Shown: positions 9,440-41,358, counted from the stretch's first letter. The stretch: 64,000 nt of DNA from a virus (IMGVR_UViG_3300027832_000010:6298-70297); one strand, 5' to 3'. Notes: generated by a model from the letters alone, not told the origin. Program-made: numbers and translations.

Positions 9440-10347
9440 ATAAATTTTCTCATGTGATTCCAGCAACTGCCATCTTCTAGTTCACTAAACTTCCAATGAA
9501 ACATGCTAATTCTTTCTAACCATTTTTGTCTGTCAAACTCTAAAGGTGTTTCTATTTTACTAAAATCTGTATTGCTAACTTCTGCGCACTGGCTATCAAT
9601 AGGGTCAGTTAAGAAACAATGATATCCTTGAATGATAGGTCCGACGGCTGCACTACTGTTATGATTAATAACAGCCCACGCATTATTCAAGTCTTGTTGT
9701 AATGCAGTTCCGATATTACTTATAGTAACGTTTCTCATATATTGCAATACTCGCAATAGCGACTGTGTATAAGTACGCGCAGTTTTGTCTCCCGGATGTG
9801 TTCTTATCACTATTGGCCTATTAGTATATTTACGCAGCTGATTAATTATATTTACTGTCCATTGCTGCACGTCTGTACCTTTGAGACTCCATCCTTTATT
9901 TCGTTGTAATAATAACACAATATGTCGGCCGTTAGTTTTATAGTTCTTTAATTGTATTGTAGTATCTTTAGAAATTTGTTGCCATCTAGTCGGGTCAATC
10001 TCTGTATCGCAATATATCCCTGTAGTAGGAAATATTCCATTAAAACTATATCGTATATAACCGTGCGGGTTAGTTTTATCTTTATATAAAAAAAGATTAG
10101 CATCACCTGATACTACAGTTTGTGTATCTATTAATTGTTTTCTTAACTTTAAATGGGGGCTACTAATATCAGAATATACCCATCCCTGTATTATTGCTAC
10201 GTCAGAAGGTTGGGCAATATCACTGTTACTAACTATTCCGTTATCGCCGCAAGCATTTACGCCTTGTATAAATTTTCTTAATATTTCAGGCTTTTGCAGA
10301 TTAGAGTTCCTTGCCGGAACTGTTTTTAAATAACTAATTACTTTCAT
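9436..10347 (-). CDS. Glycosyltransferase-like paralog
   Basis: IRTHPGD, INHNSSAAV, WLERISMFHWKFSELEDG. Confidence 0.6.
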   Translation of the reverse strand: MKVISYLKTVPARNSNLQKPEILRKFIQGVNACGDNGIVSNSDIAQPSDVAIIQGWVYSDISSPHLKLRKQLIDTQTVVSGDANLFLYKDKTNPHGYIRYSFNGIFPTTGIYCDTEIDPTRWQQISKDTTIQLKNYKTNGRHIVLLLQRNKGWSLKGTDVQQWTVNIINQLRKYTNRPIVIRTHPGDKTARTYTQSLLRVLQYMRNVTISNIGTALQQDLNNAWAVINHNSSAAVGPIIQGYHCFLTDPIDSQCAEVSNTDFSKIETPLEFDRQKWLERISMFHWKFSELEDGSCWNHMRKFI

Positions 10348-12028
10348 TTAATATACTCCACGCATAGCCTGTCCGAATTTCACGCGGAGTAAATTGACAG
10401 TAACTAAGGTGCGCTGCAAATGCAGTAACTTCATCTGCTGTCGGAATGTGCAAATTGTTAATTTGCTCTATTGCTGTATTACATAACATTCTAGCTGAAT
10501 TTGGAGCAAGTGCTATGGCAGGTAATCCGTATAGTATTGCTTCAGTAGCAGCAATACTATTGTATGTTACTACACAATATGCGTTCTCCATAGCTTGTTG
10601 AATTGTATTAGTTGTTACCCGTTCAGTGCGACCTGGCTTTAGTCTAATCGTAATCGGTCTATTGGTGTATTTTTTAATTTCTGCAACTGTAAAAGTCATC
10701 CAAGAATCAAGATCATGTCCGTAAAATTTCATAACTTTTTCACTAGGAGGAACAACTAAAATGTGTTTTCCCGGTTTATGTTTTTTATAACGCCACTTTA
10801 GTATACTTAACCTATCAGTGTCTCTTTCAATTATCGGTCCTAAATTTTGTAAATTATTTTTAGTAATACGATGATAGTCTTTACGTGTTGAAGGTTGCAA
10901 ATATCCAGTGTCAATTGCATAATAATCTATATTATTTTCTATGCAATACCGTAACGCTTTCTGGCTTCCGCCGCCAAGGCCTCTTATTACTAAGGTGTTG
11001 TTTGTGCCTTTTTGCAAGTCGAAGCTGCTAATCTTGCCGCCGGCTCCTATAATAAAATCTTGCAAATAAGAATCATATTCTAAGCCTTTTTTACTAAGAT
11101 CAAAGTCATCTGCTGTTGGTGCGATCGCCGCCACTTTTATTCCCATATTTTCTTCCAATATCTGTCTTATTGTCTCTTTTGTTTTATATATTTCTTCATC
11201 AGGATCTATAAGATTGTGTAAGTAGGCAGCTAACAGTGTTTTAGTTTTCTTAGGTAATGTTAAATCATCTATTTCAAATGTTCTAGATTTTAAATTTTGT
11301 ATTTCTTGAGTTAACTCATTTACTTTAGTTGCATACATCTTAGATTGCATTTGGTACCACTCAGATGAATATTCACAGTTTTTATAATTATCAAACCACG
11401 GGCCACCTTCAGTATAATGTAAAAACTTAGGTTTACCATCTGTAGGTTCTTTGTACCAGCCAACTAACCAATTCCATTCGTGACTTAGTTTGCCTATTTC
11501 ATTATCCTTAAGCCAACTAAATCTATGCAGATATTTCCCATCAATTTCTGGATTATTCACAAACTCTGCTGATAGTTTAGCATTACTAGGATGAGCACAA
11601 TTAATTAACATCATGCTTGACCAATTCTTACGTGGATACACAGTTTGTTTCTCACCATCCATTTTTGTACCTTCTTTAGGAGTATAGTCGTGGTGAGCAC
11701 ACATTACAGCGTACTTGTCATTACGTTGGTCAAACAATTTTTTAACATCTTCTAATGCAACAAAGTCACAATCAATAAACAATGCCCAACCCATAAAATC
11801 TTGAAGAGTAGGCACTAAAAATCTAGTAAACGTAAATTCTGTGCTAGCCAGTTTGTCTTTTTCTCTCCAATAGACTCCTTCGCTCTTTAAAACTTTTTGC
11901 TTCAATGGTATTATTTCAACAGGAACAGTTGCAGTATCAAGTATACTTTTTTTGCATACTTGATAAGCAATATCTTCTCGGCTGTCCCATCCTATAAAAA
12001 TTTTAAACGGTTTAATCTCTTCGTTCAA
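10334..12028 (-). CDS. Two-domain glycosyltransferase (GT8-like N-domain plus capsule-biosynthesis-like C-domain)
   Basis: IFIGWDSRE, STEFTFTRF, LFIDCDF, RKNWSS, HYTEGGPW; C-domain VVTYNSIAATEA. TTG start at 12028 with GGAGG SD. Confidence 0.75.
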   Translation of the reverse strand: MNEEIKPFKIFIGWDSREDIAYQVCKKSILDTATVPVEIIPLKQKVLKSEGVYWREKDKLASTEFTFTRFLVPTLQDFMGWALFIDCDFVALEDVKKLFDQRNDKYAVMCAHHDYTPKEGTKMDGEKQTVYPRKNWSSMMLINCAHPSNAKLSAEFVNNPEIDGKYLHRFSWLKDNEIGKLSHEWNWLVGWYKEPTDGKPKFLHYTEGGPWFDNYKNCEYSSEWYQMQSKMYATKVNELTQEIQNLKSRTFEIDDLTLPKKTKTLLAAYLHNLIDPDEEIYKTKETIRQILEENMGIKVAAIAPTADDFDLSKKGLEYDSYLQDFIIGAGGKISSFDLQKGTNNTLVIRGLGGGSQKALRYCIENNIDYYAIDTGYLQPSTRKDYHRITKNNLQNLGPIIERDTDRLSILKWRYKKHKPGKHILVVPPSEKVMKFYGHDLDSWMTFTVAEIKKYTNRPITIRLKPGRTERVTTNTIQQAMENAYCVVTYNSIAATEAILYGLPAIALAPNSARMLCNTAIEQINNLHIPTADEVTAFAAHLSYCQFTPREIRTGYAWSILNESN

Positions 12029-12777
12029 TGTCTTCCTCCACACATGCTTCGCCGTATTGTATTTCTACAAGTTTTAATGGCTTAGTAGTTTCATTAGCTA
12101 GCATATGCCATTGCGTCTTAGGGATATGTAATGCTTGATGTTTAGTGAATGTTCCTACTAACTCAGTATCAGTACTGCTGTCTAATGTGTACACACTAGC
12201 AGTGCCTTCAACAACAAACCAATGCTCTGCACGATGTTGATGTCGTTGCATTGATAATGTTTTGCCCGGACCTACAGTAAGTTCTTTTACTTTAGTGTGT
12301 TTATCGTATTCGTGTATCACACGATAGTATCCCCATTGTCGTTCTGTCTTAGGTGCTTTCCATTCAGTAAGGATCCAACTTGAGCTATTCTTTTTATCCT
12401 CTCCGCCGACCCCAAACACAAACTCTAAGTTATTGTCCACTAAGTCCATCTCTGGAATGTTTTCTTTAGTACGATCGCCGCCATTGGCAAATATAATTGT
12501 AGCGTCTGGATACATTGCTCTAACACCAGTAATAGTATTTTTACTGCTGTCATCTGCATCAGGGTAGCACACAACTTTATCTACAACTGCTAATGATTCT
12601 ATAATGCGACAACGTTCGTACACGTCCATGAAAGGCCTACCTTTTTTACGAGTAAGCCATTCGTCTGAATTTAGACCAACAACTAAATGGTCGCCTAATT
12701 CTTTTGCTGCTTTGAAGTAGGCAATATGCCCAGAATGCAATGGATCAAAAGCCGCCTGTAACTAGAACTATATTCAT
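12012..12777 (-). CDS. Cytidylyltransferase (HIGH) fused to mannose-6-P-isomerase-type cupin; +1 frameshift after codon 10
   Basis: ATG 12777 reads MNIVLVTGGF then TGA. Removing one T from GGC TTT TGA TCC restores GGFDPLHSGH. C-terminal WGYY...SMQRHQHRAEHW...EIQYG cupin. Confidence 0.8.
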
Positions 12778-13433
12778 ATTACGCCTCCTTTCTTCGTTGG
12801 ACGTCCAACAAACCAACCGGGTGGCTGGGTGTTTTCATAATGATATTTTGTTTCACCTAGATAATTATGATAAATTTTCATTCCTTGTATTTTATTACAC
12901 GTAGTTCGCCGGATTTCAATTTGGGCTGGGTCTTCAAATTGTTTTTTATTTCCTTCTCTCCATCGTTGTAATGTCTCTTCAGAATATATCTTGCCTGGTC
13001 GGGTTGGCATAATCTGAAGTGCTCTTTTGGCTCGCATCTTGGCCTTTACTTCTTCTGAATGAGTTTTTCCATAATATGGATTATTTTCTCCAATTAGATA
13101 TTTAGAAATATTATTTCTTGTGTTTGAGATTATAGCATTATAAGTTCGAGAACTAATCTTGTATCGTTGTTGATACGAGTTTTCTTGATTGATTAAACAT
13201 CTAATAGCATATGACATTTTCATCTTATCTTTTCCAATAGTCATTTTTACTAATAATCTATGGCAAATAAAGTGCTCCCTAGCAGTCAATGCAACAATAT
13301 TTTCTTTTTTGTTACTTCCGCCAAGGCTTTTTGGAATAATATGATGTTTTTCAACATACCCTACTCTAGGATTGGTTTTCCTATTCTCAATAATGCGATA
13401 GTAACACTTTGAATATTTGTTTGTAATAAACAT
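12774..13433 (-). CDS. HNH homing endonuclease (Mob-like) with NUMOD3
   Basis: EKHHIIPKSLGGSN...LTAREHFICH; GENNPYYGKTHSEEVKAKM. Own ATAAATA (13452-13458) and AGGAG SD. Confidence 0.9.
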   Translation of the reverse strand: MFITNKYSKCYYRIIENRKTNPRVGYVEKHHIIPKSLGGSNKKENIVALTAREHFICHRLLVKMTIGKDKMKMSYAIRCLINQENSYQQRYKISSRTYNAIISNTRNNISKYLIGENNPYYGKTHSEEVKAKMRAKRALQIMPTRPGKIYSEETLQRWREGNKKQFEDPAQIEIRRTTCNKIQGMKIYHNYLGETKYHYENTQPPGWFVGRPTKKGGVI

Positions 13434-13465
13434 ACTGTCTCCTGTATGTTTTATTTATCTGACTT

Positions 13466-13554
13466 GGGATCAAATCCGCCAGTGCAAAGTACAATTTTCA
13501 TTTTTTAATAATTCTCCCTTTTATATATCCGCCAGTGCAAAGTACAATTTTCAT
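13466..13554 (-). repeat. 28-bp direct repeat; two orphan copies of the cytidylyltransferase 5' end
   Basis: atccgccagtgcaaagtacaattttcat at 13474-13501 and 13527-13554; on the minus strand this encodes MKIVLCTGG. Confidence 0.9.
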
Positions 13555-13581
13555 GTAGTTATTTATGTACGCAGTTAATAC

Positions 13582-14208
13582 CTACCAACCAAAAATGTAA
13601 TCTTTTCTAACATTGATTAATTCTATTGCGCCTAACGATTTAAGATAATCACCTGCACAATATTCAGTGTCACGATGTTGTTCACAAACAATAATAGGTT
13701 TGTATTTTAATAATGTTTCTGTAGCACCCTTTAGTACTTCTAATTCGTGTCTTTCGCAATCTATTTTAATTAATCCAAACTTAGGAAGATCTAAATCGTC
13801 CATACGTTTTAATTCAATAGTACCTGTGCCTAGTGTATTCATATCAACATGACTCTGGCCAGTATTTTCACTGTCGTAAATCATATCAATAAACCCAGTA
13901 GTACTGCTAAGTGCAAACCGATTTATTTCTACAGGTAGATCTTTTACATTTAATTCTAAACATTTGTACACATGATCAATTGGCTCGTATGCAATAACAC
14001 GATTAAATTTTTCTGTTAATGGCCTAGCCCATAATCCTACATTAGCACCAACATCAACACATATATTAAAGTCTGTAACATATTTGTATGCAGCATCTCT
14101 AACATCATCTTGATATTCTGCGGGGCCGCCATTCATAATACGCTTTGCAATCAACCGTTCAAAATGACTATCAGTATCAGGCATCCAATAATTGTAAACT
14201 TGTTTCAT
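13582..14208 (-). CDS. FkbM-family methyltransferase
   Basis: VDVGANVGLW, AYEP, LIKIDCERHELEVLKGA. Confidence 0.88.
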   Translation of the reverse strand: MKQVYNYWMPDTDSHFERLIAKRIMNGGPAEYQDDVRDAAYKYVTDFNICVDVGANVGLWARPLTEKFNRVIAYEPIDHVYKCLELNVKDLPVEINRFALSSTTGFIDMIYDSENTGQSHVDMNTLGTGTIELKRMDDLDLPKFGLIKIDCERHELEVLKGATETLLKYKPIIVCEQHRDTEYCAGDYLKSLGAIELINVRKDYIFGW

Positions 14209-40752: not shown

Positions 40753-41358
40753 CTAGTTATTTATCCCAGTTGTTAATACTCCTAGTTTTGGGCGTTTATC
40801 AAACGCATATTCTGGGTAAAACGGGCCATTGACATCGATATAGTGAAAAAATGCCTGCACTTGATAGCTGGTGTTACTTGCTACAAACGGATCTCTCCAA
40901 TGCTCAACATCACATCCTCTATAAATTATAGCATCTCCCGGATCTTGATTAATTAACATATCAGGTTCAACATACATCCCCCAACGATAATCTGCAGGGG
41001 TTGATTTATAGTTAAATCCAAAACATACAGTTGTGCTTATTTCGCAACTTGGCCTATCTCGATGTCTATGCAACTCCATACCTGGTCGATATACGCGGTA
41101 ATATGTATAAGTGGGACATAGTTTTAAACCGGTATTTTTTTCCATGTGCGGTTGCAAAAAATGTATCATTGTTTCCATTAATGTATCGCCGTAGACTGAA
41201 TGAGAATTTTCTACTTGCGCAGTAGTACCTAAATCTGGTGAAAATTCTGTTTCTTCTTTTAGTAGAGCGTATCGTGTAATTATACGGCATAAATCAATAG
41301 GAACTAATTTTTTTACATCAATGTATTTGTTTTTTTTAAATAGATCTGGGTTATTCAT
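40753..41358 (-). CDS. 2OG-Fe(II) oxygenase
   Basis: HRD (HxD), EISTT, HWR, QAFFHY. Confidence 0.85.
   Translation of the reverse strand: MNNPDLFKKNKYIDVKKLVPIDLCRIITRYALLKEETEFSPDLGTTAQVENSHSVYGDTLMETMIHFLQPHMEKNTGLKLCPTYTYYRVYRPGMELHRHRDRPSCEISTTVCFGFNYKSTPADYRWGMYVEPDMLINQDPGDAIIYRGCDVEHWRDPFVASNTSYQVQAFFHYIDVNGPFYPEYAFDKRPKLGVLTTGINN

Follow-up and report, generated by a model that had tools for sequence, protein, structure and literature searches.

Serially acquired homing endonuclease cassettes and a candidate +1 frameshift site at the start of a phage cytidylyltransferase gene

The 5' end of a cytidylyltransferase-cupin gene was examined in a stretch of 64,000 nucleotides (nt) from an uncultured virus (IMGVR_UViG_3300027832_000010:6298-70297), hereafter the window. 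The window belongs to a 78.9-kb record (CheckV 22%). Coordinates refer to the whole window, and all features of the locus lie on the minus strand. A first-pass annotation, made from the sequence of the window alone, had reported three successive copies of the 5' end of one gene, and its coordinates and all three copies held on the minus strand. Copies A (ATG 13554) and B (ATG 13501) are identical over a 28-nt repeat (13527-13554 and 13474-13501), and copy C (ATG 12777) contains a 68% copy of this repeat (12750-12777). An FkbM-family methyltransferase gene (13582..14208; PF05050, TIGR01444) lies upstream of the insertion site, and a late-promoter-like motif, CATAAATA (13560..13567), is found 5 nt before copy A. 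Copy A (13498..13554) consists of a start, MKIVLCTGG, of the type designated class 2 below, fused to the tail YIKGRIIKK and a stop codon; its open reading frame (ORF) translates as MKIVLCTGGYIKGRIIKK. Identity to contigs L150 and L151 marks the 25 nt between the first two repeat units (13502..13526) as the relic of an older class-2 HNH endonuclease gene, of which they preserve the C-terminal end. Copy B (13451..13501; translation MKIVLCTGGFDPKSDK, then a stop) is a class-2-supplied start that is interrupted after GGFDP by a class-1 mobile cassette.

The class-1 cassette (12730..13480) is a recently transferred unit of 751 nt, identical to that of contig L083. It begins with the left arm GGCGGATTTGATCCC, which is followed by the promoter-like motif GATAAATA (13452-13459), a Shine-Dalgarno (SD) sequence, AGGAG (13439-13443), and an intact gene for a Mob-like homing endonuclease of 219 amino acids (aa) with HNH and NUMOD3 modules (12774..13433; Pfam, tblastn). 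This anatomy agrees with the earlier description of copy B as cut off by a late promoter, SD and HNH gene. A second SD, GGAGG (12784-12788), precedes copy C (12745..12777), whose ATG overlaps the endonuclease stop (ATGA) and which encodes ten codons, MNIVLVTGGF, before a TGA. The proposed +1 shift site, TTT_TGA, occupies 12745..12750 with its TTTT run at 12747-12750, and the next codon after the shift is GAT (Asp). The body of the enzyme, a CTP_transf_like cytidylyltransferase followed by a mannose-6-phosphate-isomerase-type cupin, occupies 12012..12746 in the +1 frame relative to copy C. The cassette extends 17 nt past the new start with its shift site.

The target gene matched PF01467 (38.6 bits), TIGR00125 (47.6 bits, cut-off 27.7) and the cupin family PF01050. 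The models for rfaE domain II and TagD both scored under their cut-offs. The PDB relatives 3elb, 5x9q and 1coz align to the product from residue 3-7. The nucleotide-binding motif, strand-G-x-F/Y-D-x-x-H-x-G-H, is complete only when copy C is joined to the +1 ORF. A single +1 step at TTTT yields a predicted product of 254 aa, beginning MNIVLVTGGF-DPLHSGH, which aligned without gaps from residue 1 to the proteins of contigs L003 (98% identity) and L010 (72%).

No close relative was found by megablast or blastn among 50,697 cultured-phage records, which gave only short endonuclease matches, and the comparison therefore rests on metagenomic contigs. In IMG/VR the enzyme gene has 387 relatives, and 80 of these were retrieved. 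A search with the endonuclease gave 38 relatives; those that could be examined were all located at the same codons of the same gene. Contigs L003-L006 carry no endonuclease and have flanks 97-100% identical to the window. They share the start and upstream region of copy A, but in these near-isogenic alleles the start runs uninterrupted into the gene (GGYDPLHSGH), reading ATG AAA ATT GTA CTT TGC ACT GGC GGA TAT GAC CCG TTG CAT (MKIVLCTGGYDPLHSGH). They supply the comparison with endonuclease-free alleles that the first-pass annotation had proposed as a check. Presence or absence of the endonuclease is thus polymorphic at one fixed site, the GGFDP codons, as in free-standing homing endonucleases.

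The window endonuclease matched PF07460 NUMOD3 (39.9 bits, cut-off 20.4) and, marginally, PF01844 HNH (22.1 bits, cut-off 21.4), and it contains the motif HHIIPKSLGGSNKKENIVALTAREHFICH. Its relatives in L143, L150 and L153 gave the same Pfam matches, and tblastn matches were annotated as homing endonuclease or mobE in T4-like phages. An HNH motif combined with a NUMOD3 DNA-binding module characterizes a Mob-like homing endonuclease. Two sister classes of HNH endonuclease cassette were distinguished in the related contigs, both only at the GGFDP codons and each with its own replacement start; the earlier proposal that each invader had inserted there with its own start is true of both. Class-1 enzymes are 52-100% identical to the window enzyme, and the start that they supply always ends in GGN TTT TGA Y. 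Class-2 enzymes are 62-69% identical to the window enzyme and end in GYIEGRIIKK with a stop that overlaps the ATG of a new in-frame start. This class-2 start, MKIVLCTGG(Y)DP, remains in frame and has Tyr (TAY) in place of Phe. Tyr is present at the same position in the solved relative 3elb (GCYDMVHYGH), and the class-2 allele of the cytidylyltransferase is therefore plausibly active. The endonuclease tree lacked resolution at depth: some genes bearing TTTT fell within the main clade and others beyond it, and the members of the Tyr class grouped together.

A different upstream gene was observed at one frameshift allele. In contig L162 (372-1094, minus strand), the start MPKQDLVILTGGF, followed in the +1 frame by DPIHIGH, stands behind a 241-aa gene that has only its NUMOD3/C-terminal part in common with the HNH family. 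Its N-terminus resembled GIY-YIG by eye (IYKVTNLITGKCYIGKS); a GIY-YIG domain was not confirmed by Pfam, which reported NUMOD3 only. L162 may represent a swap of the nuclease domain on a shared DNA-binding module.

The class-1 cassette showed sharp boundaries and recent horizontal transfer, as expected of homing. Over the whole unit from 13480 to 12730, L083 is 100% identical to the window. In L008 this cassette is 5'-deleted and matches the window exactly from 13319 rightward. Past the unit, identity drops to ~55% in L083 and ~90% in L008. An identical cassette in differing phage backgrounds points to recent spread by homing. In a second pair of contigs, L088 and L089, synonymous divergence (dS) was 0.008 in the endonuclease and 1.2 in the host gene. 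The flanks also carry traces of exchange. Outside 12730-13677 the window is 100% L003-like. Mismatch maps showed that the 3' end of the FkbM gene (~13579-13680) is identical to L008, with 24 differences from L003, while the rest of that gene is 100% L003-like; the untranslated region (UTR) and copy A (13525-13578) are L003-like again. The FkbM patch looks like patchy co-conversion, as expected at a break-repair hot spot beside a homing site.

The origin of copies A and B was traced to the class-2 cassette. The 25 nt between them lie within a 62-nt run (13474-13535) identical to L150 and L151, which contain an intact class-2 endonuclease gene in the same FkbM synteny, ending in PGGYIKGRIIKK and a stop and followed by a class-2 start. 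The relic matched other class-2 tails at 29 of 32 nt, and the 32-nt class-2 tail motif had a single match in the window, with 3 mismatches, and none in 100 shuffles. The first-pass annotation had taken the tail of copy A for the end of an older endonuclease gene collapsed to about 25 bp, on the strength of a likeness to GWFVGRPTKK in the intact HNH protein. That likeness is weak; the tail is identical to the class-2 C-terminus of L150 and L151, so the collapse itself stands. The junction between copy A and the relic falls within CTGGCGGAT(AT), a sequence found both in the Gly-Gly codons of the gene and in the endonuclease tail; short repeats therefore recombined, by deletion or unequal exchange, to remove the class-2 endonuclease. 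In this group of phages the gene natively begins MRKI[IV]LVTGG (L008, L150), so that copy A and the 'empty' start of L003-L006 are also of class-2 origin. On this comparison all three copies in the window are endonuclease-borne and none is native. The serial invasions proposed from the window are thus supported by the related contigs and, if anything, were understated.

A similar collapse was observed in class 1. In L008 (= L087/L142; positions 1500-1560), the native start MRKIVLVTGG is fused in frame to the endonuclease (GGSNKKEN) by a deletion between GGNGGA repeats, with loss of the first His of the HNH motif; the downstream start and its TTTT are unaltered. This truncation is of the same short-repeat kind as the class-2 relic of the window.

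Copy C had been described as supplied by the cassette and recoded at almost every codon. It is supplied by the cassette, as a 68% copy, but it does not lie in the frame of the gene; the codon listing on which that description was based ended immediately ahead of an extra T. In the frame of copy C the sequence reads GGC GGC TTT TGA TCC, and the remainder of the enzyme (DPLHSGH) follows in the +1 frame, displaced by this single T. Upstream, the +1 frame itself is closed by a TAG at a distance of six codons and offers no start. To find further alleles of this kind, the pattern GGN GGN TTTT GAY CCN NTN CAY NNN GGN CA was used; it matched 29 IMG/VR contigs, 26 of them true frameshift alleles and three in-frame (GGG GGT TTT). 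The TTT_TGA_Y site was also present in further freshwater and marine metagenome contigs. The frameshift was seen in none of 78 endonuclease-free alleles.

Conservation at the site was pronounced. All ~17 distinct class-1 start sequences, whose endonucleases have diverged to 52-82% identity, contained TTT_TGA_Y, each after a good SD sequence, although these lineages are not fully independent because of shared cassette ancestry. Examples of the starts are MNIVLVTGGF, MKIVLATGGF, MNRVILVTGGF, VNKIVLATGGF, MKIVLCTGGF, MQVALITGGF, MRTKIVIATGGF, MKNIVLVTGGF and MNASKIKTIAVVSGGF. The frame-0 peptide was always the family N-terminus, x-[IV]-x-[LI]-x-[TS]-G-G-F. Its Gly codons varied freely, and the Phe codon at the shift site was always TTT in class 1, whereas endonuclease-free alleles use TTC too. 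Summed entropy at codon positions 1, 2 and 3 was 3.5, 1.8 and 7.6 upstream of the site in frame 0, and 14.6, 8.1 and 29.8 downstream in frame +1, so that codon-position variation changes register exactly at the extra T. Synonymous and nonsynonymous codon differences before the site numbered 174 and 89 in frame 0, compared with 51 and 203 or 43 and 197 in the other registers. Programmed frameshifting is expected to leave such conservation, with coding constraint that lies in frame 0 up to the site and in frame +1 beyond it. The arrangement of a slippery P-site codon with a zero-frame stop in the A site (UUU_UGA_Y) is that of the RF2 'shifty stop'. A minority of RF2 genes shift at UUU_U, a natural variant of CUU_U (Atkins et al. 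2016, PMC5009743), and a stop directly after the slippery codon is a hallmark of 'shifty stop' +1 sites (PMC5009743).

The shift site outlasted the endonuclease. It was kept, with an intact ORF of 239-250 aa, after decay or loss of the endonuclease in L008, L109, L113, L124/L144/L148, L127/L129, L135/L140 and L183, in two of these groups beside an endonuclease tail relic (PTGYIPGRHI and a stop in L124/L144/L148; STKKGGVI and a stop in L127/L129). Non-functional upstream remnants of the gene start had decayed, with loss of the ATG or with GGFGP, GGVDP, GGFEP and GGFAS variants. No conserved alternative start was found in the +1 frame across lineages.

The relic in L124/L144/L148 represents a third tail type. 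It lies ~60 nt before the start and is followed by MKIVLCTGGF, in which a peptide resembling that of class 2 is combined with the frameshift of class 1, a hint that the two putative immunity solutions, the Tyr change and the frameshift, are evolutionarily connected.

The TTT_TGA shift was also observed in shorter, stand-alone cytidylyltransferases of 134-137 aa from marine and freshwater contigs (L166, L174, L204 and L126/L168/L172). In L166, the zero-frame ORF that leads to GGT TTT TGA C has 26 codons, and no endonuclease lies within 1.5 kb; in L204, the endonuclease is 52% identical to that of the window. The phenomenon thus reaches beyond the cupin-fused gene.

Taken together, the results lead us to propose that a family of Mob-like HNH cassettes homes to the 5' end of the cytidylyltransferase-cupin gene. 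Each cassette comprises a left arm up to the GGFDP codons, a late-promoter-like motif, an SD, the endonuclease and a translationally coupled replacement start. Comparison with related contigs shows that a class-2 cassette arrived first, and that deletion of its endonuclease between the CTGGCGGAT repeats left copy A, the 25-nt tail and copy B; a class-1 cassette then homed into copy B and brought copy C. On ribosomes that start at copy C, peptidyl-tRNA-Phe would slip from UUU to the overlapping UUU while UGA occupies the A site, an RF2-like +1 shift that would give the full enzyme. The extra T would spoil the cassette's own endonuclease target and leave the protein sequence unchanged. We give this combination of serial cassettes, RF2-like +1 decoding and a self-protecting T a probability of roughly 0.65. 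At the level of sequence, comparison between contigs established how the cassette is built and that it is mobile, showed that the older gene collapsed, and revealed both the conservation of the shift site and its coding signature. That ribosomes starting at copy C shift +1 on UUU at UGA and make the full enzyme is probable. Whether the extra T is present because it disrupts the endonuclease's own target is evenly balanced. Two points support this immunity function: class 2 alters the same codon (TTT to TAY), and the T4 gene 60/mobA cassette provides a precedent. The first-pass annotation had attributed cleavage resistance to the recoding of copy C; with copy C out of frame by one T, resistance is more likely to come from the change of TTT to TTTT in class 1 or to TAY in class 2 than from general recoding. 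We lean slightly towards the broader view that a widespread family of aquatic T4-like phage cassettes guards its own site with a single T that is read out by a UUU_UGA +1 frameshift.

Several observations weigh against this interpretation. The evidence is in silico and comes from metagenomic assemblies of uncultured phage. No conserved 3' RNA structure was found at the shift site (alifold -0.3 kcal/mol), nor a properly spaced internal SD; freely varying GGN GGN codons (GGT, GGC, GGA, GGG) abut the shift codon. Such stimulatory elements, an internal SD ~3 nt upstream or a 3' structure, raise efficiency and do not define the class, and without one the frameshift efficiency may be low or modest. 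The class-2 cassette of L096 keeps Phe (TTC), so the Tyr change is not universal in class 2. Finally, horizontal spread of the cassettes far outpaces divergence of the host gene, so that in contigs with an endonuclease the intactness of the downstream ORF is by itself weak evidence. For the same reason a test of dS co-divergence between endonuclease and host gene gave no information on purifying selection after insertion.

In one alternative the extra T is a mere lesion, the class-1 cassette inactivating a dispensable gene so that endonuclease-bearing phages make no enzyme. Cassettes recent in each background, the missing stimulator, and a genome record that is only partial and could have a second gene copy elsewhere would all fit such a lesion. 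It is nevertheless unlikely, given that the SD, the start and 10-16 codons of the enzyme N-terminus are kept down to ~52% endonuclease identity, with mostly synonymous change and in frame 0 only. The supplied start does not decay as upstream remnants do, and the site persists with an intact ORF after endonuclease loss. Moreover, deletion of a single T would restore the frame, and no such revertant was seen beside a class-1 endonuclease. It is less probable still that the gene is expressed by other means, namely transcriptional slippage along the four T, a tRNA that decodes four bases, or re-initiation yielding an N-terminally truncated enzyme. A conserved TTTT would be compatible with all three, tRNA genes are common in T4-like phages, and the window has a TTG two codons past the shift from which re-initiation might occur. 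A four-T run is far shorter than known transcriptional slippage sites, which counts against the first of these, and no tRNA gene is located within the window. The TTG position is TTA, CTA, ATC, GTT, GTA, CTC, ATA or ATT in other lineages and is thus no conserved start; a product begun there would be without the strand-Gly-Gly-Phe of the nucleotide-binding motif. An invariant stop immediately behind the slippery codon is the mark of a 'shifty stop' +1 site.

An assembly or sequencing artefact as the source of the triple start or the extra T is highly improbable. Short repeats and homopolymers are classic trouble spots in metagenome assemblies, but the repeat units here are 53 nt apart, under one read length, and the intervening 25 nt match independent contigs exactly. 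TTTT was present in dozens of contigs from different samples, only with a class-1 cassette or relic and in 0/78 cassette-free alleles. A variant of the proposed history, in contrast, is a real possibility to which we give somewhat less than even odds: the block A-relic-B-endonuclease-C, or relic-B-endonuclease-C, may have been imported in one repair event from an already-invaded donor. The L008-identical stretch at 13579-13680 within an L003-like window looks like a co-conversion patch of such an event, and unequal crossover at an 11-nt match, CTGGCGGATAT, that an L003-type start shares with the class-2 tail could have produced the A/relic junction. The L003-like UTR and copy A (13525-13578) would then require more than one exchange or patchy mismatch repair, and a search for contigs with the same composite block gave only intact class-2 genes.

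The proposed cassette most closely recalls the T4 mobA/gene 60 cassette, which combines the HNH endonuclease MobA with a 50-nt translational bypass (Bonocora et al. 2011, as cited in PMC5009743 and bioRxiv 10.1101/2022.08.31.505936). In T4, nicking by MobA is prevented by the bypass insert rather than by polymorphisms in the flanks; the insert is present wherever MobA is and outlives it, and in some metagenomic copies of the T4-type cassette a different nuclease replaces the HNH domain (bioRxiv 10.1101/2022.08.31.505936). The authors of that study call the gene 60 bypass cassette unique. In both systems a Mob-type HNH endonuclease lies inside a coding sequence and travels with a recoding signal in its target region, and the recoding element occurs wherever the endonuclease does and is kept in lineages that lost it. 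The two differ in that the signal here is a 1-nt insertion with a +1 shift at UUU_UGA, compared with a 50-nt hop with a nascent-peptide signal and a stem-loop in T4. The host gene here is unsplit, with its first 10-16 codons duplicated and replaced, and the target is a cytidylyltransferase in place of a topoisomerase. Protection from cleavage was shown for T4 and is inferred here.

Other systems share single features with the locus. As in prfB (CUU_UGA_C), a short zero-frame ORF ends in UGA, the P-site tRNA would re-pair with an overlapping UUU, and GAY (Asp) would be decoded next. Unlike prfB, the site has neither an internal SD stimulator at 3-nt spacing nor an autoregulatory logic through RF2, and it lies 10-16 codons from the start on a mobile cassette. 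In Aeromonas phage Aeh1, mobE is inserted in nrdA, one of the 'genes in pieces' made by free-standing endonucleases (PMC2988022). There too a free-standing Mob endonuclease lies in a conserved functional motif with added sequence that preserves function, but function in Aeh1 is kept by two interacting polypeptides, whereas a single polypeptide would be restored here from a duplicated start. In the 'savior indel' of the herpesvirus thymidine kinase G-run, low-level compensatory frameshifting still gives some product (PMC5009743). A beneficial indel tolerated through frameshifting is common to both cases; that of herpesvirus is sporadic and under drug selection, and the site described here is conserved across many lineages on a mobile element. 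A literature search for an endonuclease-linked programmed frameshift, or for this cassette family, found nothing comparable.

If the proposed mechanism is true, the cassette would provide the second known recoding signal integral to a mobile selfish DNA element, after T4 gene 60/mobA, and the first plain +1 frameshift to serve as nuclease immunity. Whether recoding lets a selfish nuclease alter a conserved target harmlessly has so far been addressed in one example, T4 gene 60. The present locus would provide an independent and simpler case, with a minimal six-base signal, many natural variants and an in-frame Phe-to-Tyr alternative in the sister cassette, and decayed stages at related loci show the order of loss. 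From the three stacked starts one can read, with unusual clarity, how a recombination hot spot underwent repeated homing, microhomology-mediated collapse of an endonuclease and co-conversion in patches. In every phage of this kind, gene callers will annotate a broken or truncated enzyme.

The promoter-like motifs of the cassette belong to a wider pattern in the window. NATAAATA, mostly in the form GATAAATA, precedes many minus-strand genes; GATAAATA was found 5-31 nt before many of their starts, for example at 40765, 33120, 27993, 27257, 24628, 18976 and 13459. Exact TATAAATA was rejected as the motif preceding these genes, as it is depleted (2 occurrences, 10.6 expected) and the local motif is NATAAATA. 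The window contains four occurrences of ATAAATAA, where 12 were expected, and two of the four are at this locus. The T4 late-promoter motif seems to be used by this phage in a variant with G or C in first place, and to be avoided elsewhere.

The gene downstream (10334-12043, minus strand) encodes a protein of 569 aa with an N-terminal glycosyltransferase family 8 domain and overlaps the end of the cytidylyltransferase-cupin gene. With the FkbM methyltransferase gene, it looks like part of a small sugar-nucleotide or glycosylation module.

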